The position numbers were made by a program, and so were the translations under genes. A stretch of DNA of 64,000 bases from a virus. Lineage: Duplodnaviria; Caudoviricetes. Every line of letters begins with the position of its first letter. Positions within the stretch are counted from its first letter, which is position 1. Under the pieces are notes generated by a model, which saw only the letters and a program-made list of their open reading frames with translations, was not told the origin of the DNA and did not search any database. Of the stretch, positions 2,543 to 15,094 are shown in pieces. The stretch covers positions 1 through 64,000 of IMG/VR virus record IMGVR_UViG_3300020047_006434; one strand, written 5' to 3'.

Positions 2543-5500
2543 ATGGTTGACAATCGCTTTTATCAATTAGCTGCTCATCTTTGGAAAGGTGGGCAGTGCT
2601 CGTATTATTGGATTCCCGATGGCGACAGCGGGAAATTGACGTTCTGGTTTCCGTCGCAATCGCCCCGCGAGGTCAGCGACCTATGGACAGCAGTCAATGT
2701 TTATTTTGGCATTCATCCCAGCGCCGCGTCGAAGACAATGCAGCAGCGAGCACTTATTGAAGACATCGCAGCAGTGAATTGTCTATTCGCTGAATTTGAT
2801 TTAGCACCGGGGCAACAGCCTGGTCACCTACTTGATTCTATTCTAACCCTGGATATTGTACCGTCTGTGATTGTCTTCAGCGGCGGTGGCTATCATTGTG
2901 TTCCACTTGATACTGAGATATTAACTTCTAATGGCTGGAGAAAGTGGAACGAAGTTAATGCAGGTGACAATGTTGTTGGATACAATACCAACACTGAATC
3001 ACTTGAGTTAACCACTATGACGGGCAAAATATTGAAGAGCGACGATGAATTGGTGCATGTTCACAATGGAAACTTTTCGGCCATTTGCACCCCGGATCAT
3101 AGATGGGTTACGCATGTAAAAACGGGAAGACAAGGTACGAAGCTTGTCAAGAATCAATTGACAAAAGCTAGAGACATATCAAATCGTCGGCATAAGATTG
3201 TTGTCAGCGCTCCATTTGTCGAACAAAAAGACTGTTTGAATATCACCGAGATGGAATCTGAAGTTCTTGGATGGATCATCAGCGACGGGCGCATCTTGAG
3301 TTGCGACAGATTGGAGATAACTCAGAGTGAAAAGAAGTATGCCGACATTATTCGATCTTTACTGAATGGCATTCCACACAGTGAAGGATATTACCATAAA
3401 GATAAGCCAGATTTTGTTACCTGGCGGATCGGCAATGGTTGGGCTAGAGATTTATTAACGCGCTCTGGTTTAACATACGATTCTTTGAATAGTGAATCAT
3501 GGAGTCAGTTTGTCATTAAGCTTTCACCTAGTTGTCGAAAAAGCTTTTTGAAAACTGCATTTTATGGCGACGGCACAATGAACAGGGGAACGCAATGCAT
3601 GGTGCAAAAGATGGGAGATAGAGCAGACGCTCTTAATCTAGCCATTTTTCTTGATGGTAATGCGCCACGTATTTCAGGCAAAACCGCAAGTAGACCAGAT
3701 AGTGATGTCAGAGTAACCAGATCCGGGCATGATTTTGCCACATGGAATATGAAAGTAGAACCGGCAGGACGAGGGGCTGTGTGGTGCCCAAAAACCGAGT
3801 TAGGCACATGGGTCATGCGACAAGGTGACACAATTACTATCACTGGTAATTGCTATTGGTTACTCGATCAGACCTACCACATTGACAGCCCAGAGGCCCG
3901 ACAGCGGATTATAGATATTCAATACGCATGGGACGAGTACGTTACCGGTGACAACCACGTCAAGGATCTGGCGCGTGTACTGCGCATTCCCGGCACTTAC
4001 AACCGCAAGCCAGAGTTTGCGCCCAACTATCCCCAGGCGCAGATCATCAAATTCGACATGGCCGCTCAGTATGAACTTGCCGATCTTGCGCAGGAAGTTG
4101 AAACCATTGTGGCGGCAACATCTGCCAAACGTACCGCTGTTGCGTCTGTGGATGTGGTGCCCGTCGAAATGGATGACAACACGATCCTTGATAAGATGCG
4201 GGAAAAAGATACCATTGCGGCGGCGCTATGGGATGGTGATATGTCGGCCTACAATGACGACCACAGTAACGCAGACCTAGCGCTATGCAGTAAGCTGGCG
4301 TTCTGGTTTGGTCGTGACCCGCTACGCATTGATCGGGTGTTTCGTGGTAGTGCTCTGTTTCGCCCGAAATGGCTGCGTGACGATTACCGCAATCGCACCA
4401 TTGACAAGGCCATTGCAAGCTGTACCAATACCTATAGTGGTGGCACAAGTGACCCGACCAAGCTCCCCGGCGATCCGCTGGGCGTACTGGGCAATGTAAT
4501 TACTTTCAATGGTAACGGCCACACGAACGGCAATCACGCGCCCACAAATGGCACAGTGCCGCCACAGATGCCCCCGCCGCCGGTAGTGCCACCAACACAG
4601 CCACAAACGCAAGGCCCGCAGTTGTCAGGCGCCACAATCAACGCTACCGACACAGGCAATGCGCGCCGGCTGGTTAAATTGTACGGCAATGACATTCGAT
4701 ATATTACCGAATGGGGCAAGTGGTTTATCTGGAACGGCCGCTACTGGGCAGAGGACAAGACACGACGGATCGAGTTCCTAGCCAAACAAGTTGTTACCGG
4801 CATGTATATCGAGGCAAGCATAGAACCAGATCCAGACAAGCGCCGATCCCTAGTTAAATGGGCCATGACTAGTGAAGGCCAAGCGCGCATAGAGGCAATG
4901 GTGCGAAGCGCTCAATCGGAGCCGGGAATCACCATCACACACGCCCAGCTTGACCGGGGCGCCTGGTTTCTCAACTGCAAAAATGGGATTGTGGATCTGC
5001 GCACGGGCAAGCTACACCCACACGAGAAAGACGCACTGCTGACCAAGTATGTGGACGTTGAATACCGCACTGACGTTGATTGTCCGATCTGGAAAGCCTT
5101 CCTGAATAAGATCATGGCGAATGACGCCGACATTATCCATTTCATTCAGCGCGCCGTCGGCTACACCTTGACGGGGAATGTATCGGAAAAATGTCTATTT
5201 TTTATGTATGGGCCAAAAGGTAACAACGGTAAATCAACGTTTGTGGAAGTGCTGCTCGCGCTGCTTGGTGAGTACTCCATCAAGTCGCCAATCGAAATGC
5301 TGATGGCACGCTACGGTAACCCCGGCATTCCGAATGATATTGCACAATTGCCGGGGCGCCGCTTCGTGGTCACCTCCGAAACCGAGCAAGGGCGCAAGCT
5401 CAATGAAACAATGGTTAAAGACCTAACCGGCATGGATACGATTACCGCTCGCTTTATGCGTCAAGAGTATTTCAGTTTTCAGCCTACACACAAGCTCTGG

Positions 5501-6007
5501 ATTTACGGCAATCATAAGCCAGTGATCAAAGGCCGTGACGAAGCGATTTGGAACCGCATCCGGTTGATTCCATTTATGGTTCAGGTACCCAAAGCCGAAC
5601 AAGATAAAGACCTGATCAATAAATTGATCGCAGAGCTACCGGGGATCTTTGCATGGGCCGTCGAGGGCTGCATGGAATGGAACCGTATCGGCTTATCTGA
5701 GCCGGCAAGCGTTGCGCAGGCGACCACAGCTTACAAGACCGAAATGGACAGTCTCGCGCTTTGGATTGAATCAAACTGCACTGTGGACATTCGCAAAATT
5801 GACCTCTTCAAAAACCTCTATCAAGACTATCTACAATGGAGTGCAGACCACGGCGAAAACACAATCAGCGGTCGGGAGTTTGGTCAGGCACTTGACGGGC
5901 TTGGCTATGTGGCCGCCAAGGGCGCCGGGAACAAAGCCATCCGCAAAGGTATCGTAACCAATACGCAAGACGCCATCAATTCCGCAAATAGCTTAGTAAA
6001 TCCGTAA
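2543..6007 (+). CDS. primase-helicase (RepB-like primase domain + P4/D5-type SF3 helicase), intein-containing
   Basis: FAEFD and SGGGYH-/-CYW primase motifs, KDLARVLRIPGTYN, D5_N-like TDTGNARRL, Walker A GPKGNNGKST, SF3 KDLTGMDTITAR. Confidence 0.92.
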   Translation: MVDNRFYQLAAHLWKGGQCSYYWIPDGDSGKLTFWFPSQSPREVSDLWTAVNVYFGIHPSAASKTMQQRALIEDIAAVNCLFAEFDLAPGQQPGHLLDSILTLDIVPSVIVFSGGGYHCVPLDTEILTSNGWRKWNEVNAGDNVVGYNTNTESLELTTMTGKILKSDDELVHVHNGNFSAICTPDHRWVTHVKTGRQGTKLVKNQLTKARDISNRRHKIVVSAPFVEQKDCLNITEMESEVLGWIISDGRILSCDRLEITQSEKKYADIIRSLLNGIPHSEGYYHKDKPDFVTWRIGNGWARDLLTRSGLTYDSLNSESWSQFVIKLSPSCRKSFLKTAFYGDGTMNRGTQCMVQKMGDRADALNLAIFLDGNAPRISGKTASRPDSDVRVTRSGHDFATWNMKVEPAGRGAVWCPKTELGTWVMRQGDTITITGNCYWLLDQTYHIDSPEARQRIIDIQYAWDEYVTGDNHVKDLARVLRIPGTYNRKPEFAPNYPQAQIIKFDMAAQYELADLAQEVETIVAATSAKRTAVASVDVVPVEMDDNTILDKMREKDTIAAALWDGDMSAYNDDHSNADLALCSKLAFWFGRDPLRIDRVFRGSALFRPKWLRDDYRNRTIDKAIASCTNTYSGGTSDPTKLPGDPLGVLGNVITFNGNGHTNGNHAPTNGTVPPQMPPPPVVPPTQPQTQGPQLSGATINATDTGNARRLVKLYGNDIRYITEWGKWFIWNGRYWAEDKTRRIEFLAKQVVTGMYIEASIEPDPDKRRSLVKWAMTSEGQARIEAMVRSAQSEPGITITHAQLDRGAWFLNCKNGIVDLRTGKLHPHEKDALLTKYVDVEYRTDVDCPIWKAFLNKIMANDADIIHFIQRAVGYTLTGNVSEKCLFFMYGPKGNNGKSTFVEVLLALLGEYSIKSPIEMLMARYGNPGIPNDIAQLPGRRFVVTSETEQGRKLNETMVKDLTGMDTITARFMRQEYFSFQPTHKLWIYGNHKPVIKGRDEAIWNRIRLIPFMVQVPKAEQDKDLINKLIAELPGIFAWAVEGCMEWNRIGLSEPASVAQATTAYKTEMDSLALWIESNCTVDIRKIDLFKNLYQDYLQWSADHGENTISGREFGQALDGLGYVAAKGAGNKAIRKGIVTNTQDAINSANSLVNP
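2897..3850 (+). mobile_element. intein with LAGLIDADG-type homing endonuclease (318 aa)
   Basis: Starts CVPLDTEILT, ends ITITGN with Cys at +1. LGWIISDG and FLKTAFYGDG blocks present. Removing it restores SGGGYHCYW. AT-richer than the host gene. Confidence 0.9.
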
Positions 6008-6080
6008 GTGTGAAAGCATAAAAACTTTCCACTTGCGGTTTTTTGCGTTCAAATTGATTTCTAAAATAGAAATTTCATAG

Positions 6081-6109
6081 TTGACAACGTTGCTAAAATA
6101 GGGTAAAAT
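6081..6109 (+). promoter_or_regulatory. sigma70-type promoter for the tRNA cluster
   Basis: TTGACA-17 nt-TAAAAT. Confidence 0.8.
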
Positions 6110-6235
6110 TTCTATAACAGCAACGATACATCGCACTCACGCACATTTCCAACCCTATAGCACGCCGGGAGCAGTAATCAAGTGTCAGGCCGAGGTCGGC
6201 TTGGTGAATCGCCCGAACGAGCGTGCAGCATTTTT

Positions 6236-6307
6236 GGGCCGATAGTTTAGCCGGGAGAACGGCGCTTTTGCACGGCGATGACACGGGTTCGACTCCCGTT
6301 CGGTCCA
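6236..6307 (+). tRNA. tRNA-Ala(UGC)
   Basis: Acceptor GGGCCGA/TCGGTCC with G3:U70, discriminator A, anticodon loop TT-TGC-AC, T arm ACGGG-TTCGACT-CCCGT. No encoded CCA. Confidence 0.85.
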
Positions 6308-6312
6308 CTTTT

Positions 6313-6455
6313 GAGGCGTCACTGTGGTGGGACACAGGCGGGCATTGACTCGGCTGATCACCGATAGCCCTGACAAGCGGTTCGACTCCGCAACGAGCGC
6401 ACGGCTAGCGCCACCTAGGGAACTAGGTCGTCCGGTTCGATTCCGGCGCGCCTCA
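6313..6455 (+). ncRNA. 143-nt tRNA-like RNA with expanded core (two T-loops)
   Basis: Acceptor GAGGCGT/GCGCCTC+A; D-like CTGTG-GTGGGA-CACAG; internal GCGG-TTCGACT-CCGC; GCGC-ACGGCTA-GCGC; ACCTAG-GGAA-CTAGGT; terminal CCGG-TTCGATT-CCGG. Confidence 0.7.
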
Positions 6456-6489
6456 CTGGCAACGAAGTTTTAGAAGAGAGGACAACAGT

Positions 6490-6687
6490 ATGGACAAGCA
6501 AAAAGTATGGCCATGCAAGCATTGTGGCCGAGTGTTTGACAGCGCGGGCGAGTGGTGGAGTCATAACTGTGATGATGAGGACACCCAGCCGGTGACGGTT
6601 ACACCAGCGCAACGTGACATGGTTGCCATTCCTAGCAATGCGCCACGCTGCCAGGTAGAAGAAAGCGGAGATATGTTATGGGCATAA
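6490..6687 (+). CDS. small zinc-finger-like protein
   Basis: CKHC...WWSHNC, with GAGG-type RBS. Confidence 0.6.
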   Translation: MDKQKVWPCKHCGRVFDSAGEWWSHNCDDEDTQPVTVTPAQRDMVAIPSNAPRCQVEESGDMLWA

Positions 6688-6971
6688 ATATCGAAATCCC
6701 CGACGGCGAATTGTTCCGTGGCCAGGCTGCCACGCTGTTGGTTGAGATGGCCCGCCGCTACATTCAGCCACGCCGGCGCATCATCGCCATTGGCCGCTGC
6801 CAGAACGGTGGCGCTTTCAAGGTGACGACACATCAAGCGCCGCCGGCAGATTTTGAGGCAGCCATTGCAGAGGTGTTGACGCCGGATCGGGTGCCGACGG
6901 TGCGCAACATGGCGGATTGTGAAGATGAGCACATTGGCGCAGAACTTTGTGAAGCGCCGTACAACTGGTAA
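6678..6971 (+). CDS. hypothetical protein
   Basis: Overlapping ORF in the operon, preceded by GGAG. Confidence 0.6.
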   Translation: MGINIEIPDGELFRGQAATLLVEMARRYIQPRRRIIAIGRCQNGGAFKVTTHQAPPADFEAAIAEVLTPDRVPTVRNMADCEDEHIGAELCEAPYNW

Positions 6972-7012
6972 TTGCACAGGGCACCCCCGGCCTGACGAAA
7001 GGAGATAGACGC

Positions 7013-7348
7013 GTGCAACAAGAAATCAGCCAGATCCTAGCGCTTGCCGCAAAGCTGCGCACAGGATTGAACGATAGCCAGGCGCCCGAAAAGTTGCTTG
7101 CGGAGAAGTACGAACTGATTGCCGAGATTGAAGCGGGGAACAGTATTGCCGCACTAACGGAGGGTGCCGACATTGCGTATTTCGCTGTCAAGAGCATGGA
7201 ATGGGCGGCTACACAATGCGGGATTGACATTGACACATTGCTACGCTTGGCGATTGCAAAGTATAGCCGTCGTGCCGGCCCTGGCAATCCGAAGGACAAG
7301 GAAGCGGAAGCAGCGGCGTGTGTGCGAGTATTGGAGGAGACACCATGA
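7013..7348 (+). CDS. MazG/HisE-like all-alpha NTP pyrophosphatase-like protein
   Basis: EKLLAEKYELIAE...EGADIAYF resembles the E-x-x-E...E-x-A-D-h-h-Y signature; GAAAGGAG RBS. Confidence 0.55.
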   Translation: MQQEISQILALAAKLRTGLNDSQAPEKLLAEKYELIAEIEAGNSIAALTEGADIAYFAVKSMEWAATQCGIDIDTLLRLAIAKYSRRAGPGNPKDKEAEAAACVRVLEETP

Positions 7349-7438
7349 CCACCGCCGTCAGCCCGCAGCCGCAACGCTGGCAAGGCTATTGGCTGTGGCT
7401 GAACACACTGTACACGACCAGCGAATTATGCCACCGCT

Positions 7439-7687
7439 TTGACTGGCAGTGGTACGAGGGGCACCGAGAAGCTTAGCGCATGGCGACAGGCTAAAGGCGA
7501 GCAGGATTGGCCACAGTATTACGTTGTGCCGACGAAATGCCAATCTACCAACCACGACCACAGCACATGTTACGGCGACCTCTGGCAATGCAGCGAGTGC
7601 TTACACTGGTATTGCTGCAACGAGGGGACCGACGGTGAAGACGCCGATTTGTGTGACGACTGTTGGGCGGAGAAACACAGCGAATAG
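7439..7687 (+). CDS. Cys-rich hypothetical protein (start uncertain)
   Basis: CSEC...CCNEG...CDDC pattern. Confidence 0.4.
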   Translation: MTGSGTRGTEKLSAWRQAKGEQDWPQYYVVPTKCQSTNHDHSTCYGDLWQCSECLHWYCCNEGTDGEDADLCDDCWAEKHSE

Positions 7688-7796
7688 AACAAGCTTGCTA
7701 CCCTGCCCGCGTCAACCGGCACACAACCGGGTGCGGAGTTGGGGAGCACCGCAATGGGCGGCATGGTGGCAAGCTCCATAGAAAGCGAGAGAGACA

Positions 7797-7931
7797 ATGA
7801 CAGCAACAATCTATTACATTCGCTACGGCGAACAGAAAAGCTACACATGCCCACGTGCGCAAGTGGATGCTGAGATGATCGCCATGTTGCAGACACCAGG
7901 CGTGACGGATGCCTGGTACACACTGAACTGA
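7797..7931 (+). CDS. small hypothetical protein (44 aa, not in ORF track)
   Basis: MTATIYYIRYGEQKSY...WYTLN* after a purine-rich RBS. Confidence 0.45.
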   Translation: MTATIYYIRYGEQKSYTCPRAQVDAEMIAMLQTPGVTDAWYTLN

Positions 7932-8157
7932 CAACACCAGCCACACACCGCCGCACGATTCGCATACCGACCACCACGGCATAGGGCAATGGTACGTAAA
8001 AACCTTCATAGATGTGTCGTGGTCAAACTGCAACGTGGACGGTAGCGGGCCTGCCCCGGCCCTCCTTTATCGTGTAGAGCCTGACCAGTGTGTAGCAGGG
8101 GACGACAACGGGACAACATCGCAGGGACTGACAGGCCGGCAGTGTGTGGATACAAAT

Positions 8158-8231
8158 TGGCGGGTAGCTCAACAGGTAGAGTGATGCACCGAATAGGGCA
8201 TTGGTTGCCGGTTCAACTCCGGCCCCGCCAC
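8158..8231 (+). tRNA. tRNA-like gene with non-canonical anticodon arm (pseudo or undetermined)
   Basis: Acceptor TGGCGGG/CCCGCCA, D arm GCTC-AACAGGTA-GAGT, T arm GCCGG-TTCAACT-CCGGC. Anticodon arm ATGC-ACCGAATAGG-GCAT is irregular (nominal GAA, no U33). Confidence 0.65.
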
Positions 8232-8234
8232 ATA

Positions 8235-8436
8235 GCCATGCGGAATCAATCAATCGCTGACTACGATCTCTGTGGCGAATTGATAAATAATCAATCCGCA
8301 TGGCACGGCAACAACCAACCGAGCATAACGACGAAAGGAGATGTGGAGAGCGGATAACGCAGGTAGTTGATACGAGTGAGAGAAGCGATTTTGCAACCGG
8401 TGGCGGCTAGGGTGGGCCGATGCCGCCACCAAATCG
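8235..8436 (+). other. two long hairpins in the leader of the RAMP gene
   Basis: GCCATGCGGA/TCCGCATGGC (8235-8304) and CGATTT..GGTGGCGGC/GCCGCCACC-AAATCG (8386-8436). Confidence 0.6.
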
Positions 8437-8453
8437 AAAGAGAGAATTGAGTT

Positions 8454-9044
8454 ATGGCAAAGACAACTAGCGAAGTGATCCAGTTACCAGAATTAAAGCA
8501 ACGCCGGGTGATTATTCGTGTTCGTGGCACATCGTCACTGATTACACATCCGTTCGGCAAAAAGGCACTCAAGATGATTGAGGACAAGCAGCAAGGTAAG
8601 GCAAAGTCATCTAAACACGAAGTGCGTAACCCGGAGCAGGAATACGAGGATTCGCTATACATTCGTGAAGATGGAACATTCGGTTTTCCTGCCATCGGAT
8701 TTAAGGCAGCGGTCGTAACAGCCGCCAACGATGCCGGGATTCAGAAAGTGTTGGCCCGCCGTGCGTTCCATGTGGTTGGCGGGGAGTTGGTCAAGATAGA
8801 AGGCGAGCCAACCATGCGCACGGATCGTGTCACCATCGGCATGGGGACAACTGATATTCGCTATCGTGCTGAGTTCAAAGAGTGGGCCGCCGATGTGCCT
8901 ATTGTGTTTAATGAAGGAGTGATTTCCTTGGAGCAGTTGGTTAATCTTTTCAGCATTGCGGGCTTTGGTGTAGGCGTGGGCGAATGGCGGCCAGAGCGCG
9001 ACGGCATTCACGGCACATGGGATGTAGCGGGGGTTGTCGGCTGA
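8454..9044 (+). CDS. stand-alone RAMP/Cas7-like RNA-binding protein (Vipr-like)
   Basis: N-terminal beta strand IIRVRGTSSLITH, FGFPAIGFKAA helix motif, and C-terminal Gly-rich loop AGFGVGVGEWRPERDGIHGTWDV. This is the RAMP (Cas7/Csm3) layout, and the gene lies next to a GGYNN array. Confidence 0.75.
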   Translation: MAKTTSEVIQLPELKQRRVIIRVRGTSSLITHPFGKKALKMIEDKQQGKAKSSKHEVRNPEQEYEDSLYIREDGTFGFPAIGFKAAVVTAANDAGIQKVLARRAFHVVGGELVKIEGEPTMRTDRVTIGMGTTDIRYRAEFKEWAADVPIVFNEGVISLEQLVNLFSIAGFGVGVGEWRPERDGIHGTWDVAGVVG

Positions 9045-9547
9045 TGAATACCTACTCCTGGAAATACAACATTCCCGCCAATGCGCAACGGGTCGGCAGT
9101 GAGTTGGAAGCCATCTACGAAGAGCATGGCAAGTTGACACCACCACTGATTGTGGAAGATGCCCGCAACGATGAACGGGAAACGCACAAGCTTATCGAAT
9201 GGGACGAAGCGACCGCCGCCGAAAAATACCGGTTAGAGCAGGCCCGCTACATCATGCGTAACATCATCGTTGTGCAGTCAACGCCTAACCTGGAAGAGCC
9301 AAAGGAGGAGCAGAAGATCATCAAGTTTCGTGCCTTTGAAAACGTTGAGACGGAAGAGCAGGAACGCTACTTTATGCCCATGCAAGTGGCGGTTAGTCGG
9401 GAAGATACCCGCAACTACATGCTGAAACAGGCAATGATGGCGCTGCAATCTTTTCGCCAAAAGTACGGCATGATTACCGACCTTGCCGCCGTGATTGACG
9501 CCATTGACGCACTAGAGCAACAGTACACCGTCAAGCGAGCAGCATAG
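9044..9547 (+). CDS. accessory protein coupled to the RAMP gene
   Basis: TGA/ATG overlap at 9044. LIEWDEATAAEKYRLEQARYIMRNIIVV block. The stop codon lies 3 nt before the array. Confidence 0.8.
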   Translation: MNTYSWKYNIPANAQRVGSELEAIYEEHGKLTPPLIVEDARNDERETHKLIEWDEATAAEKYRLEQARYIMRNIIVVQSTPNLEEPKEEQKIIKFRAFENVETEEQERYFMPMQVAVSREDTRNYMLKQAMMALQSFRQKYGMITDLAAVIDAIDALEQQYTVKRAA

Positions 9548-9550
9548 CAA

Positions 9551-10007
9551 GGCAGGCGTGGCTTGGCGCGGTTAGGTGAGGTATGGTTCGGCAGGGTAAG
9601 GCCGGGTAAGGCAGGTCACGGTGTGGCAGGTGAGGTAGGGTAAGGCGAGGCTCGGTGCGGTGCGGTCGGGTCAGGCATGACATGGTACGGCATGGCAGGC
9701 AGGGTTAGGCGCGGTTAGGCGTGGTACGGTCTAGTGTGGCAGGGTGCAGTGCGGCAAGGCATAGCAGGCGCGGTTCGTTTCGGCCTGGCATGGCAGGCGT
9801 GGTGAGGCATGGCTTGGCGTAGTGCGGCGTAGTGTGGCGGGGTTGGGCATGGCATGGCAGGCTTGGCGGGGTAAGGCGTGGTAGGGCTAGGCCCGGCAAC
9901 GTGCGGTGCGGTGTCGTAGGCAAGGTCTGGTCGGGCATGGAGGCCGTGGCGTAGTAGGGTGGGGTTAGGTGAGGTAAGGTAAGGCGGGTCATGGCGTGGT
10001 TTGGTTA
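9551..10007 (+). ncRNA. GGY-NN pentamer array (putative multi-guide RNA precursor)
   Basis: 84 in-register pentamers counted by hand; 74 begin GGC/GGT and all have a pyrimidine at position 3; positions 4-5 vary. Register is reset by 4-nt spacers GGCA/AGCA/CGTA. Confidence 0.9.
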
Positions 10008-10022
10008 TATAAGGAGGTGACA

Positions 10023-10085
10023 GTGGACACAACATGGTTTCTTGCGCTACTGGGGCTGGTTTGTTGCCTGGTAGCGCTGCGGTAG
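10023..10085 (+). CDS. putative 20-aa membrane peptide
   Basis: AAGGAGGTGA RBS, then GTG-DTTWFLALLGLVCCLVALR*. Confidence 0.5.
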   Translation: MDTTWFLALLGLVCCLVALR

Positions 10086-10089
10086 AGGG

Positions 10090-10147
10090 GAAGGGGAAAG
10101 CCTAAAGGGATTGTGTTGCACCAACAATCAATCACAAGAAAGGCTTT
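10090..10147 (+). repeat. intergenic element A, copy 1 (copy 2 at 11523-11583)
   Basis: GAAGGGG-AAGCC...TGT.TTGCACCAACA.TCAA...GAAAGGCTTT is shared by both copies. Confidence 0.75.
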
Positions 10148-10152
10148 ACACA

Positions 10153-10263
10153 ATGTTAGTCAAAATTTTATTTGCGCAACCAGCACCGCCGCCACAGACA
10201 CCCCCGCCGCCGGACAAAGATGACGGCCCATATCATGACCCGTGGGGCAAGAAAGGAAAGTAG
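10153..10263 (+). CDS. small Pro-rich protein (36 aa)
   Basis: MLVKILFAQPAPPPQTPPPP... downstream of GAAAGG. Confidence 0.45.
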   Translation: MLVKILFAQPAPPPQTPPPPDKDDGPYHDPWGKKGK

Positions 10264-10270
10264 GTGGCAT

Positions 10271-10363
10271 ATGTGGAAATTCATTTGCGGACTATTCCGG
10301 TGCCCCGGTTGCGGCACATATTACAACCCGACGTTTGGCAAGTGCCCCACCTGCGGGCAGTAG
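10271..10363 (+). CDS. 30-aa zinc-ribbon peptide
   Basis: CPGC...CPTC. Confidence 0.5.
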   Translation: MWKFICGLFRCPGCGTYYNPTFGKCPTCGQ

Positions 10364-10365
10364 GT

Positions 10366-10430
10366 TAATCGCTTCGGGTGCTGGTAGCTGTGAACTATCG
10401 GCACCCTAGGGCAAAAGCAGAAAGAAAGGA
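10366..10430 (+). repeat. intergenic element B, copy 1 (CTGTGAA-loop hairpin; copy 2 at 12013-12078)
   Basis: TAATCGCTT-C, then a GGG...CCC stem with identical loop CTGTGAA and compensatory changes, then GGCAAA..CAGAA.AAAGGA. Confidence 0.8.
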
Positions 10431-10444
10431 CAACGATATTGTAC

Positions 10445-10735
10445 ATGAAACGTCAACAACTTGCAATCATCGCCGCCGTCATTGCACTCGTTTATCTGTC
10501 TATCCTGTGGCCGCTGGAAGTTGGCGCGCAGGAAGTGCCACCGGAGACACCGCAGATCTCTGCGACATGGTTCGTGCCCACCCTGACGCCGTTCGAGCCG
10601 ACCGATACGCCAGAGCCGGTGCCCACGCCGACGGTAACGCGCCGCCCAACGGCAACCCCATCTATGACGCCTACGCCGATTGTGATTCAGCCGCTGCCAC
10701 AGCATTATGTGTGGTTGCCGATTGCGAGAAAGTAG
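10445..10735 (+). CDS. secreted Pro/Thr-rich protein with C-terminal LP-h motif
   Basis: Signal peptide or TM, PT linker, ends YVWLPIARK. Confidence 0.75.
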   Translation: MKRQQLAIIAAVIALVYLSILWPLEVGAQEVPPETPQISATWFVPTLTPFEPTDTPEPVPTPTVTRRPTATPSMTPTPIVIQPLPQHYVWLPIARK

Positions 10736-10740
10736 GAACT

Positions 10741-10938
10741 ATGATTGTCAACCCTCGCAAGGGCATGACCGTGCAGATTTGGTATAACAAACGGGTAGCG
10801 CCCACGATGCACTTGCACGGCAAGATCGGGACCGTGACCATCGTCAGCCGGGGCAAGCCTCGCAACCACGGTATTACCATTGATGGTCAGATGTGGGTTG
10901 TGCCCTGCGGAAATATTCGAGTGCCACCCACCGTGTAA
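10741..10938 (+). CDS. small SH3/KOW-like beta protein
   Basis: GMTVQIW...GKIGTVTIV pattern; 65 aa. Confidence 0.5.
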   Translation: MIVNPRKGMTVQIWYNKRVAPTMHLHGKIGTVTIVSRGKPRNHGITIDGQMWVVPCGNIRVPPTV

Positions 10939-10946
10939 TGTAGTCC

Positions 10947-11049
10947 GGTCGCCGCCGCTGCTCACTGTGTGCATAACATCAGCAATCATCGAACCATCGT
11001 ACCGAATCGCAGCTTCGACCATACATGCCACCGATGGCGGGCAGGTGGC
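10947..11049 (+). ncRNA. intergenic element C, copy 1 (pseudoknot RNA; copy 2 at 12939-13039)
   Basis: GGTCG/CGACC stem, CCGCC linker, variable P2, and a 3' hairpin whose loop GAT-GGCGG-GCA can pair with CCGCC. Confidence 0.65.
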
Positions 11050-11074
11050 GCAACATAGAAGGAAAACAAACATC

Positions 11075-11512
11075 ATGGGATTAGATATTTATGTCCGGTG
11101 GGACGGTATGACAGATGAGGAGCAAAACGCTCAGTATACCGGCTATCGGGATTCGTGCGAGACTGGATACCTGCGTTTTAACTGGACGGGTGTAAAAGTT
11201 TGTCGTTGCATAGCTGACAAGACAGGCGCCCCCAACCCTATCCGACACCTGTTCTCAGAGTGGAACGGCAGCAACGGTGAAGAGCTATTTGTTGACGATG
11301 ATGTGATGCGCCGCCTTTCCGATAACCGCACGCAGTTGGCCGAATGGCTGCGCAGTAGTATTCCGCAGGAAATCAGATTAGACGATTTCCCAGACGAGAA
11401 TCCGGTCGGATTGCGCCAGTGGTTTGTCGGCAAGGTCCATGGCGCAATGACAATGATCAACTTTGTTGAATTAAACAAGGACAAGCCAAATTTGCGGATC
11501 GAATTCAACTAG
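11075..11512 (+). CDS. hypothetical phage protein
   Basis: MGLDIY start typical of small phage early proteins; GAAGGA RBS. Confidence 0.7.
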   Translation: MGLDIYVRWDGMTDEEQNAQYTGYRDSCETGYLRFNWTGVKVCRCIADKTGAPNPIRHLFSEWNGSNGEELFVDDDVMRRLSDNRTQLAEWLRSSIPQEIRLDDFPDENPVGLRQWFVGKVHGAMTMINFVELNKDKPNLRIEFN

Positions 11513-11522
11513 GCAGCACGGA

Positions 11523-11583
11523 GAAGGGGAAGCCAACTCAGGAAATTTGTTTGCACCAACATTCAACAAACTGAGAAAGGCTT
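11523..11583 (+). repeat. intergenic element A, copy 2
   Basis: See 10090-10147. Confidence 0.75.
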
Positions 11584-11588
11584 TTACA

Positions 11589-11792
11589 ATGAGCAACAAG
11601 AGCAAAGACAACTACGACCACCTTGACAAAATCCTGCATGAAAGCCAGGAGAAACCCGGCGTTGGTGGCAAAGTGTGGATTGAATCGAAGTTCCACCCCG
11701 GCGGCGGGTACTGGGCAGAACCGAGTGAGGTTGGGTTAACGTGGGAATCATTGAAGGAAGTTGACAAGATCGAACGATATTTGCGGAGTTAG
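11589..11792 (+). CDS. hypothetical protein
   Basis: ATG after GAAAGG. Confidence 0.6.
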   Translation: MSNKSKDNYDHLDKILHESQEKPGVGGKVWIESKFHPGGGYWAEPSEVGLTWESLKEVDKIERYLRS

Positions 11793-11802
11793 GAGTGAGA
11801 GC

Positions 11803-12015
11803 ATGATTGATTTGAATCCAGGTGATTCAATAGTGCGAGCTATGGACGGATTAAAGCAGGGTGAATATTGGCGCAATGACGGCCATGTGACAGCGGTTAG
11901 TGATACGCAAATTGTCTGCACGGTCTTCGTAGACGTGCCTCGATCCATGACATTTGACAGAGTGACTGGCGTCAACGTGTACGGCAAGGAATACGGTTGG
12001 CTAGAATCAAAGTAA
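11803..12015 (+). CDS. hypothetical protein
   Basis: AGGAG RBS. Confidence 0.6.
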   Translation: MIDLNPGDSIVRAMDGLKQGEYWRNDGHVTAVSDTQIVCTVFVDVPRSMTFDRVTGVNVYGKEYGWLESK

Positions 12016-12078
12016 TCGCTTTCGGGCGCTGACGACTGTGAATCATCAGCGCCCATCAGGCAAAGACAGAAGAAAGGA
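12013..12078 (+). repeat. intergenic element B, copy 2
   Basis: GGGCGCTGA-CGA-CTGTGAA-TCA-TCAGCGCCC. Confidence 0.8.
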
Positions 12079-12086
12079 CAGGTTTA

Positions 12087-12380
12087 GTGTATACGAGGAA
12101 AACTGATTTGTCAACGTACTTATGGTTTATCGCCGCCGTTGCACTGTTGGTGGCCATCGTCATGGTTGCCACAGTCGCCCGCGCACAGGATGACCCGATT
12201 ATCTGTGTACCTGACCAACCGTGTATCGCACCGGCAGCGACCGCCGTCAATACGCCGACGGCAACGCCAGTCATGGCGCCGTCACCCGAAGCAACGCCGG
12301 TTATCGTGCGGCCGTTCCCGCTAGGTCCGTGCAAGCTTGCGCCGGGGTGCGCTCTGCTGCCACTGGTGGTGACGCCATGA
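12087..12380 (+). CDS. secreted Pro/Thr-rich protein with C-terminal LP-h motif
   Basis: TM or signal ending VARAQ, PT linker, ends CALLPLVVTP. Confidence 0.75.
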   Translation: MYTRKTDLSTYLWFIAAVALLVAIVMVATVARAQDDPIICVPDQPCIAPAATAVNTPTATPVMAPSPEATPVIVRPFPLGPCKLAPGCALLPLVVTP

Positions 12381-12727
12381 ACATTGATGAACTACTGCAA
12401 CGTGAACTGAAGCCGCAATCATTCGACTGGTGGGGCAATTATTACGAGAACGTCGTGCCGGCACTGGTAGAAAAGCCGCTTGGCGACGGCGCGGCGCTGG
12501 TTGGTTTTTCGTCGGTTGACACACGGCCATATTACTGGCTGATACGAGCAGACAGCAGCACCACCACGATGGATGAGGACCAACTGCGTGACTATGTGGA
12601 GGCTCATGTCATCGATGCCATTGGCGAATGCTTCGGTGAATGCACTTGCACAGAGGATTGCGATTGCGCATGGCCAACGCTGATACTAGACAGCGGCGGA
12701 TATAACTGGTGGGTGGTGACGCCATGA
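12377..12727 (+). CDS. hypothetical protein
   Basis: ATGA overlap; acidic 116-aa ORF. Confidence 0.65.
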   Translation: MNIDELLQRELKPQSFDWWGNYYENVVPALVEKPLGDGAALVGFSSVDTRPYYWLIRADSSTTTMDEDQLRDYVEAHVIDAIGECFGECTCTEDCDCAWPTLILDSGGYNWWVVTP

Positions 12728-12927
12728 AACGACAGCAACAGGTACGCGACGCAATCGAAGTGCTGGCCACACGTCAGCAGATGCTTTGCGACTTCGCAAA
12801 ACTAGCGCTAGGCCAACGTGACCGTGTGGCGGCAGAGATGCTAGTACATGACGCCATGTCGGTGGATGCGAAGATCCGGCACCAAATCAATCGGCTAGGG
12901 CCGGTGGAATTGATAGGACGTACCTAA
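12724..12927 (+). CDS. hypothetical helical protein
   Basis: Overlapping start. Confidence 0.55.
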   Translation: MKRQQQVRDAIEVLATRQQMLCDFAKLALGQRDRVAAEMLVHDAMSVDAKIRHQINRLGPVELIGRT

Positions 12928-12938
12928 CACCCCCACGC

Positions 12939-13039
12939 GGTCGCCGCCGCCTGCACCGTAGCTGTGTTCTCCAACGCACACCGCAGGCAGCCACGCTTCG
13001 ACCACAAGCGCCAACCGACGAAGGCGGGCAGTCGGTGGC
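12939..13039 (+). ncRNA. intergenic element C, copy 2
   Basis: GGTCG-CCGCC-GC...GCTT-CGACC...GCCAACCGAC-GAAGGCGGGCA-GTCGGTGGC. Confidence 0.65.
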
Positions 13040-13071
13040 AAGTAATCATGACAAGATGAAAGGATAAGGCC

Positions 13072-13470
13072 ATGATTGACGAATTTGACACACTTTTGCG
13101 CAACAACTATTTTGATCCGCACTGGAAACCAGAAGCAAACTACAGCATGACAGCGCATATCAACGACCTATCACCGCACTACACCAACAGGCGATTCGCC
13201 AAGCCGCAGACGGTTTGGGGCGCCGAGGAACAAGGCATTAGCTACGATTACAGCGACCGTCTCTGGCAGTGGGACTACGATAAGGCGAAAGCGTCTGCTG
13301 AGCTAGCTAACCAAAGTGCGTCGCGTAATACAGCAAAGTGGTGCCAGCTATTTCTTGACCACTATTTCGGCAAGCCGACGCAACTGCGCCATATCATGGC
13401 GGGCTTTAATCTCAGCAATGGCTATCCTTATCAGATTTTTGGCTATCGCTTTGTGGAGGCGCAACCATGA
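13072..13470 (+). CDS. hypothetical phage protein
   Basis: GAAAGGA RBS; 132 aa. Confidence 0.7.
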   Translation: MIDEFDTLLRNNYFDPHWKPEANYSMTAHINDLSPHYTNRRFAKPQTVWGAEEQGISYDYSDRLWQWDYDKAKASAELANQSASRNTAKWCQLFLDHYFGKPTQLRHIMAGFNLSNGYPYQIFGYRFVEAQP

Positions 13471-13685
13471 TCATACTACGTGTCAACGAAGGCGATCCGC
13501 TTCCCCTTGCTCGCCCCGGCTACGAACGGGTGCTGGTGGAGGAGTTCAGCGGATTACGTCACGCCGTGTTCATCCCCGCAGAATGCTGCGAGTTGCACCG
13601 TGGCCACAGCGACATTGGCAGCGCAATCAACTATATCAGGAGCAATGTGCCGGGGATGGCGATTAGAAAGGTAGAACTGATTTGA
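13467..13685 (+). CDS. hypothetical protein
   Basis: ATGA overlap. Confidence 0.55.
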   Translation: MIILRVNEGDPLPLARPGYERVLVEEFSGLRHAVFIPAECCELHRGHSDIGSAINYIRSNVPGMAIRKVELI

Positions 13686-14125
13686 AGGCACTGACAATCA
13701 AACAGCCGTGGGCGTGGGCAATCACGCATGGCACCAAGCGCGTGGAAAACCGCACATGGAAACCACCGTTCCACATCATTGGGCAACGCATCGCCATTCA
13801 CACCAGCGCACGAATCGAGAAAGCTGAATTGTTGGCATATAGCGAAATGGGCGCATGGCTGGAACCAACGGTGAACACGCTGCCCGTCGGTTGCATTATC
13901 GGCACGGCCATCGTCAAGGGTTACGTTGTAGTCAATGACATGGGCGGCGTAGAAGTGCAGACGAAAGGGGCGCAGGGTTATAGTCCCAACAAAGACCCGT
14001 GGTTCTGCGGTCCTGTCGGCTGGCTGCTGGACGATGTGCGCAAACTACCAGGGCCATTACCATGTAAAGGTGCGCTTGGCTTGTGGGATGTGCCAGACGC
14101 ATGGGCGATGCATATTGAGGCGTAG
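13682..14125 (+). CDS. ASCH (PUA-like) domain protein
   Basis: KALTIKQPWAWAI..G.KRVENRTW, GCIIGTA, KGALGLW. Confidence 0.9.
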   Translation: MKALTIKQPWAWAITHGTKRVENRTWKPPFHIIGQRIAIHTSARIEKAELLAYSEMGAWLEPTVNTLPVGCIIGTAIVKGYVVVNDMGGVEVQTKGAQGYSPNKDPWFCGPVGWLLDDVRKLPGPLPCKGALGLWDVPDAWAMHIEA

Positions 14126-14127
14126 CC

Positions 14128-14355
14128 ATGAATAGATCAACCTACGACGCCAACGGCGAGCCAACCAACATTGAAGCCGCGGCGCTTGATGCTATCTAGT
14201 GGCTTGAGTTGATGCAACGGCTGATGGACAATGGCAAGCTGACCCTGTTGCAACACGCTGAGAACAGGCAGCGGCTTGGCACGGCAACGGAGAAACTAAA
14301 ACAGATGGTAGAAAGGGAAACACAGTGCGACCAACTTGGGATGAACACTGGATGA
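14128..14355 (+). pseudogene. small ORF interrupted by in-frame TAG
   Basis: MNRSTYDANGEPTNIEAAALDAI*WLELMQRL...; the TAG is at 14197-14199 and the frame stays open for 51 more codons. Confidence 0.45.
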
Positions 14356-14750
14356 ACATGGCTGTAGGCGCCGCCGAGATGGGCACCTGTCCACGGGCGC
14401 AAGTCGGCTGTGTGTTGGTGCGTGACAACCGGATTATAGCCACAGGCCATAACGGGGCATTGGCCGGATTAAACCATTGCATTGACGTTGGGTGCATGAT
14501 TGAAAATGATCACTGTGTCCGCGCCACCCATGCCGAACAAAACGCCGTTATCCAATGCGCGCTGCACGGCACAAGCAGCAGGGGCGCAACTTGTTTTACG
14601 ACACATTTCCCCTGTGTGGCCTGCGCCAAGATATTGATCGGTGCCGGCGTTGATCGTGTGGTGTACCTGCACGATTACGCCAACGGGCGCGGTGATGAGT
14701 TTTTCAAATGGGCAAGAATTCAAATCGAACAATTGAAAGCAGGTGAGTAG
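14325..14750 (+). CDS. dCMP deaminase
   Basis: HAEQNA and PCVAC zinc motifs; RAQVGCVLV, TGHNG. Confidence 0.92.
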   Translation: MRPTWDEHWMNMAVGAAEMGTCPRAQVGCVLVRDNRIIATGHNGALAGLNHCIDVGCMIENDHCVRATHAEQNAVIQCALHGTSSRGATCFTTHFPCVACAKILIGAGVDRVVYLHDYANGRGDEFFKWARIQIEQLKAGE

Positions 14751-15094
14751 TGTTAATGTTTCCTGATGATTTTGTGGCATCGTTTAACCTGATGTCGGCC
14801 AACATTCATAGCAATGCACGCAACCACGGCTGGTGGGAGACTGACCGCAACGACGGCGAAATGATTGCCTTAATGCATAGTGAACTCAGCGAGGCGCTAG
14901 AGGCGATTCGACACGGCAACCTACCCGATGACAAGTGCCCAGAGTTCAATGGCGCCGTGGTTGAATTCGCAGACACGATCATTCGTATCATGGATACCTG
15001 TCATGCCCGTGGATGGCCCCTGGCCGAAGCCATCCTTGCCAAGCACAAAATGAACGTCAACCGGCCATACAAGCATGGGGGAAAGGCGTTCTGA
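14750..15094 (+). CDS. MazG-like nucleotide pyrophosphohydrolase
   Basis: HSELSEALEA...EFADTIIRIMD. Confidence 0.8.
   Translation: MLMFPDDFVASFNLMSANIHSNARNHGWWETDRNDGEMIALMHSELSEALEAIRHGNLPDDKCPEFNGAVVEFADTIIRIMDTCHARGWPLAEAILAKHKMNVNRPYKHGGKAF

Follow-up and report, generated by a model that had tools for sequence, protein, structure and literature searches.

A probable VIPR locus with a staggered vrRNA array in the complete genome of an uncultured phage

Introduction

What is encoded by a tract of GGYNN pentamers on the plus strand of an uncultured phage genome, and why is its five-nucleotide register broken at intervals by units of only four nucleotides? The tract lies in the 64,000-nt stretch of DNA analyzed here (positions 1 to 64,000 of IMG/VR record IMGVR_UViG_3300020047_006434, hereafter the window). 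A preliminary description, made from the letters and their open reading frames, regarded the tract as an array of about eight separate guides, delimited by 4-nt phase shifts and carrying GGCAU-GGCA as a repeat-like handle or processing site.

A repeat grammar of this kind has been published for VIPR (Viral Interference Programmable Repeat), which was first described in 2026 as a mostly phage-encoded system that silences DNA under RNA guidance and is related to CRISPR (bioRxiv 10.64898/2026.04.26.720920 = PMC13142463). According to the available text of that report, its protein (Vipr) is a minimal RAMP composed of an RRM core, a G-loop, and a thumb, its guides (vrRNAs) consist of 9–16 GGY/NN repeats in which internal degeneracy is frequent, and seven VIPR types are distinguished (10.64898/2026.04.26.720920). 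Vipr protomers and repeats pair one to one, GGY being sequestered by the protein, with a pyrimidine pocket at Y3, as given in the available part of the structural report (10.64898/2026.04.26.720927). The NN pairs read double-stranded DNA with every third base skipped, which is shown for type II only, and the Vipr complex silences rival phages and satellites (10.64898/2026.04.26.720920, available text). The same report mentions “staggered arrays with overlapping vrRNAs,” and in its legend of Fig. S18 neighbors overlap by 1 nt, the end of one being the start of the next, so that the vrRNA borders are set at the 1-nt overlaps.

We propose, with a probability of about 0.85 and on the basis of sequence comparisons, that positions 8454–10007 of the plus strand constitute the VIPR locus of this complete 85-kb phage, consisting of vipr, a candidate accessory gene, and a staggered vrRNA array in which the guides would be delimited at 4-nt steps.

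Materials and Methods

The pentamer tract was parsed by dynamic programming, with the unit length left free within 3–7 nt. Scanning IMG/VR for the repeat pattern by itself gave at least 134 stretches, from which 131 distinct arrays were parsed. ORF clustering was applied to the flanks of 66 distinct loci (65 from IMG/VR and the window), each flanked by no less than 3 kb. Target searches in public collections used a 1-nt skip only and exact seeds of 8–9 units, and hence have limited sensitivity.

Anatomy of the Array

The parse resolved the tract at 9555–10007 (+) into 92 units spanning 453 nt, namely 85 pentamers and seven 4-nt units, which separate eight blocks (S1 to S8, Table 1). That the register is broken only by 4-nt units, as had been claimed, is borne out: seven such units lie inside the tract, and the eighth, GGCA at 9551, precedes it, 4 bases past the stop codon of the upstream gene. 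Each junction is a single 4-nt unit, so that two adjoining blocks of n1 and n2 units together with their junction span 5(n1+n2+1)-1 nt. Arithmetically, this is the same as vrRNAs that overlap by 1 nt.

Table 1. Features of the proposed VIPR locus; block sizes are given in GGYNN units.
Feature	Position	Strand	Basis
vipr gene, 196-aa Vipr protein, minimal Cas7-like RAMP	8454..9044	+	PHROG, PDB profile, AF2/Foldseek
Candidate vipr-accessory gene (vap), 167 aa; ATG overlaps vipr stop (TGATG)	9044..9547	+	phrog_15946
Leading 4-nt unit GGCA, ahead of guide 1	9551..9554	+	sequence
Block S1, putative guide 1, 14 units	9555..9624	+	parse
Junction GGCA, 4-nt unit	9625..9628	+	parse
Block S2, putative guide 2, 13 units, last GGCAT	9629..9693	+	parse
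4-nt unit GGCA	9694..9697	+	parse
Block S3, putative guide 3, 13 units, last GGCAT	9698..9762	+	parse
4-nt unit AGCA	9763..9766	+	parse
Block S4, short, 5 units, last GGCAT	9767..9791	+	parse
4-nt unit GGCA	9792..9795	+	parse
Block S5, putative guide 4, 12 units, last GGCAT	9796..9855	+	parse
4-nt unit GGCA	9856..9859	+	parse
Block S6, putative guide 5, 11 units	9860..9914	+	parse
Degenerate junction CGTA, 4-nt unit	9915..9918	+	parse
Block S7, short, 4 units, last GGCAT	9919..9938	+	parse
4-nt step GGAG; equally parsed as GGAGG+CCGT	9939..9942	+	parse
Block S8, putative guide 6, 13 units; array terminus without GGCA after it	9943..10007	+	parse, sequence

The preliminary sizes of the first seven blocks agree with the parse, whereas the last block has 13 units rather than 12, GCCGT having been set aside in the earlier count; correspondingly, all eight NN strings quoted there are identical to ours save for one extra GT that opens S8. 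The stretch at 9939, previously called scrambled, is a 4-nt step in either of its two parses (Table 1). As for the number of guides, six blocks are full-length (11–14 units), but the two short ones (5 and 4 units) fall below the reported range of 9–16 repeats.

The unit that precedes a break is GGCAT in five blocks (Table 1) and GGTGT in both others. With AT as the NN in 5 of the 7 pre-break units vs. 11 of 85 units overall, this is a significant enrichment (hypergeometric p=2.6e-4, the NN being picked post hoc). GGCGT does start three segments, as had been noted, but is not enriched there (p=0.29). Degenerate units also occur within the array, i.e., GTCAC, GACAT, AGTGT, AGTGC, CGTGC, and GTTTC.

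The periodicity of the tract is far beyond chance, since the pattern (GGYNN)x7GGY with at most 2 mismatches has 43 matches in the window, all of them on the plus strand at 9550–10005, vs. 0 in 100 shuffles. A pattern search of both strands of the complete 85,413-bp genome found no second such array. The region is GC-rich (0.62–0.67) with a GC skew of +0.36 to +0.53, the plus strand being the G-rich one. The only plus-strand ORF of at least 40 aa across the array is at 9832–9954, and two minus-strand ORFs (95 and 106 aa) are rich in Pro, Thr, and Leu; the latter are by-products of base composition, and the tract is non-coding. No Rfam family matches the array, and a promoter and terminator scan of 8000–10500 gave counts at the level of shuffled sequences, with none on the plus strand near the array. 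Of the 15 public runs listed for this phage, all of them contig-level, four were compared; their contigs end at 9539 and restart at 10017, a gap of the kind that assemblers leave at repeats, and none spans the array.

Immediately after the array, at 10011–10020, we read a strong Shine-Dalgarno-like sequence (AAGGAGGTGA), and a GTG at 10023 starts a 20-codon hydrophobic ORF (MDTTWFLALLGLVCCLVALR) with its stop codon at 10083–10085. This predicted small membrane peptide (10023–10085) may be co-transcribed with the array.

The Vipr Protein and Its Neighborhood

The identity of the locus is indicated primarily by the 196-aa protein encoded upstream of the array, on the same strand, with 507 nt between the end of its gene and the beginning of the array. 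The protein belongs to phrog_4652 (E=3.5e-26), a PHROG family without an annotated function, and Pfam has no match for it or for its 167-aa neighbor. A profile built from 41 homologs, however, matched PDB entry 36pp_D, “SUSP1 Vipr protein,” over 190 residues (E=4.7e-39). As a single sequence, the protein is only weakly similar to SUSP1 Vipr (E=3.4e-5 over 54 residues), and is therefore assigned to a separate clade; the closest Vipr in IMG/VR shares 52% identity with it. An AlphaFold2 model of high confidence (pLDDT 94) found Csm3/Cas7 subunits of type III CRISPR systems as its best Foldseek matches (E ~1e-5, TM ~0.55).

In SUSP1 Vipr, residues H17, R138, D177, W178, and R179 hold G1, G2, and Y3, as given in the available part of the structural report (bioRxiv 10.64898/2026.04.26.720927). 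In the window protein, the aligned counterparts of SUSP1 H17, R138, and D177-W178-R179 are H32, R138, and E177-W178-R179, respectively (D is replaced by E at 177), so that, as judged from the alignment, the residues contacting GGY, namely H, R, and (D/E)WR, are conserved. Because the upstream protein matches SUSP1 Vipr, has a Csm3/Cas7-like fold, and keeps the contact residues, we identify the locus as a VIPR system, and since the GGY/NN grammar of the array is that of vrRNAs, we identify the array as its guide array.

The gene between vipr and the array encodes a 167-aa protein of phrog_15946 (E=2.7e-19), also a family without an annotated function. Among the matches listed, 14 of the 66 loci, including the window, have a homolog of it next to vipr and on the same strand as the array. 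The AlphaFold2 model of this protein (pLDDT 87) has weak fold matches only, in an N-terminal portion that resembles a winged helix and in a helical hairpin (residues 115–167): a wide VIA-align comparison reached Z<=6.6, for the most part in this C-terminal hairpin, while Foldseek returned nothing below E=0.1 and a PDB profile search nothing below E=0.07. We tentatively refer to it as a candidate vipr-accessory gene.

Several other features lie upstream. The gene at 2543–6007 encodes a 1154-aa primase-polymerase/helicase (Pfam RepB_primase, NrS-1 pol HBD, D5_N, and DUF5906), in which an insert of ~340 aa (approximately residues 118–460) is located between the primase motifs, starts with Cys, and ends with ...GN|C. 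To judge from its sequence, the insert resembles an intein and may include a homing endonuclease; a Hint domain was not recovered from the protein by Pfam at E<=0.01. Two tRNA-related genes are also present, a tRNA-Ala(TGC) at 6236–6308 and, just upstream of vipr at 8158–8231, a tRNA-like gene that matches the Rfam tRNA family with 47.9 bits and for which ARAGORN gave an undefined two-base “anticodon (aa).”

Searches for Targets

It had been suggested that the NN strings, read with skipped bases, would match potential targets more often than shuffled controls. These searches were run, and none of them gave matches above chance; because the exact 8–9-unit seeds limit the sensitivity, this outcome leaves the guide reading unrefuted. 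With skips of 0–3 nt, the phage's own genome contains no self-target when compared with shuffled unit orders, and the same genome combined with 590 kb of IMG/VR loci yielded nothing above the shuffled order except for the array itself at skip 3. Published systems likewise have no self-targets, according to the available text (10.64898/2026.04.26.720920).

In IMG/VR, exact 8-unit central seeds of S1, S2, S3, S5, S6, and S8 had 40, 14, 1, 15, 7, and 22 matches, respectively (99 in all), with flanks that agree at chance level. A metagenome scan with the S3 seed (1-nt skip) gave 71 matches, the best being 23/26 vs. 0.25 expected, and a genome scan with a 9-unit S2 seed (1-nt skip) gave 14, the best also being 23/26 vs. 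0.38 expected; both are taken as chance level. The best extended sites overall (22/26, 21/24, 23/26, and 23/26) are within chance expectation in their numbers. Within the class to which an Anaerolineaceae MAG belongs, full-length searches allowing at most 3 mismatches found S2 in 0 of 321 and S1 in 0 of 151 genomes, and the controls were 0 as well.

Two individual sites are recorded here. The 23/26 site of S2 lies in the region of the murA end and the hisG start codon of a Competibacteraceae MAG, a wastewater organism (L321/L327, G001 contig C27, 11888–11925), and is regarded as a lead; none of the remaining guides matches this 19.8-kb contig. S8 has a 22/26 site (0.43 expected, within chance) that is identical in three records (L223, L234, and L236) and lies in an open frame in which the skipped bases are at codon position 3. 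Judging from a translated fragment, this frame resembles what we take to be a phage gene of the PAPS-reductase family.

Comparison with Arrays of Other Phages

Among the matches listed, a Vipr homolog of ~200 aa is present in 43 of the 66 loci found by the repeat pattern, is encoded on the G-rich strand in all 43, and mostly ends ~10 nt upstream of the array. In the converse, protein-first search, eight loci with Vipr homologs of 38–52% identity were found, six of which have a GGYNN array on the same strand, five of the six being punctuated by GGCA; in the other two, the contigs are cut 300–520 nt past the gene.

The 4-nt breaks were compared in the 41 arrays that contain at least three of them. 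Among the matches listed, the most frequent break by far is GGCA (182), followed by GGCG (39), CGCA (19), and TGCA (11), with C as the third base in 94% of breaks vs. 67% of ordinary units, and A as the fourth in 79% vs. 29%. Internal blocks of these arrays have a preferred length, 179 of 256 having 7–12 units (mode 9) and 37 of 256 having 0–3 units, again among the matches listed. The related arrays listed frequently open with 1–3 units, which are then followed by GGCA. As for the ordinary units among the matches listed, positions 4 and 5 show almost no constraint and position 3 shuns purines (G 1%, A 4%).

The NN ahead of a break varies from array to array. AT precedes 5 of the 7 breaks in the window, and the other arrays have their own preferred NN: GT at 6 of 7 breaks in L006 (p=5.4e-6), AT at 9 of 13 in L051 (p=2.4e-6), AC at 6 of 7 in L075 (p=5.4e-5), and AA at 10 of 18 in L076 (p=1.4e-4), the NN being picked post hoc in each case. 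The pre-break unit thus tends to be constant within arrays and differs between them. Of the GGCAU-GGCA handle proposed in the preliminary description, GGCA is kept across arrays, whereas the preceding unit is conserved only within an array; the combination therefore behaves as a short constant end of the window array, and only GGCA is general.

The NN strings themselves are nearly all unique: among the 461 blocks of at least 6 units in 132 arrays (among the matches listed), blocks are shared only by the near-identical contigs L060 and L087. Since the blocks are mutually dissimilar, plain satellite expansion is excluded, and the earlier view of the long segments as distinct guides gains backing from the Vipr homology, the literature, and the comparison across phages. 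There is a faint signal of NN coherence in the coding sense or antisense within blocks, the observed value being equalled or exceeded in 59 of 2000 permutations. Between the halves of a single block, the correlation is r=0.16 (n=358), vs. r=0.06 across a break (n=293), a difference that is not significant.

Not all Vipr-linked arrays are punctuated in the same way. Some arrays that adjoin vipr contain 40–175 GGYNN units without any 4-nt break, e.g., in L024 (3961–4665), L085 (281–1838), L002, and L008, and other Vipr-side arrays in IMG/VR break with 6–7 nt (GGTACAT, GGAGAT, and GGCAAA), so that several punctuation styles exist within the Vipr-linked family.

This diversity bears on an alternative reading in which the tract is a VIPR array, while the 4-nt units are merely tolerated replication slips, and the transcript either acts as a single very long vrRNA, or a small number of them, or is cut elsewhere. 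Related arrays do run unbroken for 25–175 units (141 units in L024 and a block of 175 in L085), and small-RNA sequencing has confirmed the ribozyme-interspersed and single-guide layouts, the staggered one not being named there in the available text (10.64898/2026.04.26.720920). Random slippage, however, would produce neither the dominance of GGCA nor the spacing of 7–12 units seen in 179 of the 256 internal blocks among the matches listed, nor does it account for a pre-break unit that is conserved within arrays, and the published legend of Fig. S18 places vrRNA borders exactly at such 1-nt overlaps. As the dominance of GGCA and the regular spacing indicate selection rather than random slippage, the 4-nt punctuation is, on this comparative evidence, a selected feature, and we consider the slippage reading unlikely.

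A second alternative, which we consider very unlikely, is that the tract is a decaying or orphan remnant, or a plain satellite expansion, that no longer functions. It would agree with the six degenerate units, the degenerate junctions CGTA and GGAG, the two short blocks, and the target searches that yielded none. It is difficult to reconcile, however, with an intact vipr ~500 nt upstream on the same strand that retains the RNA-contact residues, with the 85 units that keep G near the family level (among the matches listed), and with the mutual dissimilarity of the blocks, which argues against recent tandem duplication; moreover, the internal degeneracy is of a kind that is frequent in vrRNAs according to the available text (10.64898/2026.04.26.720920).

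Least probable of all is that the tract is no guide array but a 5-nt-periodic titrator of a TRAP-like ring or filament protein, a site of two-tetrad G-quadruplexes or R-loops, or an origin or packaging site, which the G-rich strand (GC skew up to +0.53), the 11–14-unit blocks reminiscent of ring stoichiometries, and the primase-polymerase gene 3.5 kb upstream might suggest, but which is countered by the adjacent Vipr homolog, a GGY/NN grammar that is exactly that of vrRNAs, the avoidance of purines at position 3 (G 1%, A 4%, among the matches listed) that fits the Vipr pyrimidine pocket, and the lack of any Rfam match. The TRAP-like, G-quadruplex, and origin ideas were dropped upon the profile match to SUSP1 Vipr (E=4.7e-39).

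Proposed Mechanism of Guide Delimitation

Under the VIPR reading, we hypothesize that the array is transcribed together with, or from just downstream of, vipr (and the accessory gene). By analogy to SUSP1, and with the contact residues conserved, one Vipr protomer would bind each GGYNN unit, with G1 and G2 held in one protomer, Y3 in the next, and NN displayed. A 4-nt unit would subtract one base from the 5-nt register, and because G1/G2 and Y3 would sit in successive protomers, the growing filament could not cross it and would stop. Each block would then form its own ribonucleoprotein, with cleavage or trimming of the RNA at the junction or close to it.

The predicted products are six guides of 11–14 units and two short blocks of doubtful use. 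Block S4 is probably a truncated or non-functional guide, and the 5- and 4-unit blocks may be remnants, as they are shorter than any reported vrRNA. By analogy to type II, the guides may pair their NN with double-stranded DNA, skipping every third base, and thereby repress the transcription of a competing phage, a prophage, or a satellite. GGCAT together with GGCA may serve as a short, array-specific constant end that replaces the ~40-nt structured tail of the SUSP1 vrRNAs.

The comparisons suggest that the register shift alone may delimit guides. A more far-reaching proposal, which we put forward tentatively and regard as possible although somewhat improbable, is that in a widespread branch of VIPR the loss of one base from the register (GGCA in place of GGYNN), combined with an array-specific constant unit (e.g., GGCAT), is the sole border signal, so that guide length would be set by filament dephasing, without a nuclease site, ribozyme, hairpin repeat, or structured tail. 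If true, this would represent a new way to punctuate a guide-RNA array, and blocks of 4–5 units might be spacers or decoys rather than guides. The comparative statistics further predict how such arrays would be measured and cut, i.e., with GGCA as a near-universal junction, blocks of ~8–12 units, and a semi-constant, array-specific last unit.

Comparison with Known Systems

VIPR is very recent among RNA-guided systems, and bench work on it is confined to type II. The more distant relatives are the class 1 CRISPR-Cas systems, with which the window locus shares an RRM/RAMP fold with a G-rich loop and a thumb, the binding of one protomer per fixed step of the guide (as predicted here), and a multi-guide array in which the targeting parts vary. 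The step is 6 nt in CRISPR, compared with 5 nt here, where only 2 of 5 bases would read the target, and the guide borders are hairpin repeats in CRISPR as opposed to a 1-nt register shift in the window. Repeats of 25–40 nt are absent here, the pentamers being the sole direct repeat family, and Pfam and PHROG searches of the neighboring proteins (13 and 12, respectively) found no Cas6, Cas1, Cas2, or other cas genes in 5000–15000.

Within VIPR, the arrays interspersed with hammerhead ribozymes (Fig. S19 legend, 10.64898/2026.04.26.720920) likewise carry several guides on one transcript, as far as can be judged from the legend. Their guides are separated by a self-cleaving ribozyme, for which the abutting blocks of the window leave no room, and no Rfam ribozyme was found in 5500–12000.

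The available parts of the reports on the type II system of Escherichia phage SUSP1 (PDB 36pp; 10.64898/2026.04.26.720927; 10.64898/2026.10.15.759431) show a homologous Vipr with the same GGY-contact residues, guides of ~10–14 GGYNN units, and a small accessory gene after vipr. SUSP1 vap1 and the phrog_15946 candidate of the window are similar in position, which does not imply kinship. In contrast to the window guides, which abut with only ~4–9 constant nt between them, the SUSP1 vrRNAs are separate transcripts of ~100 nt with a conserved pseudoknot tail of ~40 nt.

The closest likeness is to the published staggered VIPR arrays, which are also phage-encoded, with a Vipr RAMP gene beside a GGY/NN pentamer array on the same strand, and which have the same 1-nt offset between guides and neither a ribozyme nor a long tail, a likeness of anatomy only, judged from the legend of Fig. 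S18. The window locus is thus a further example of the known, very recently described VIPR rather than a new kind of element. It presents the tail-less, staggered layout in a clean and complete form, in which 1.6 kb of a closed genome accommodates vipr, the candidate accessory gene, and six to eight putative guides, and the junction statistics of GGCA, the distribution of block lengths, and the array-specific last unit are the modest additions made here.
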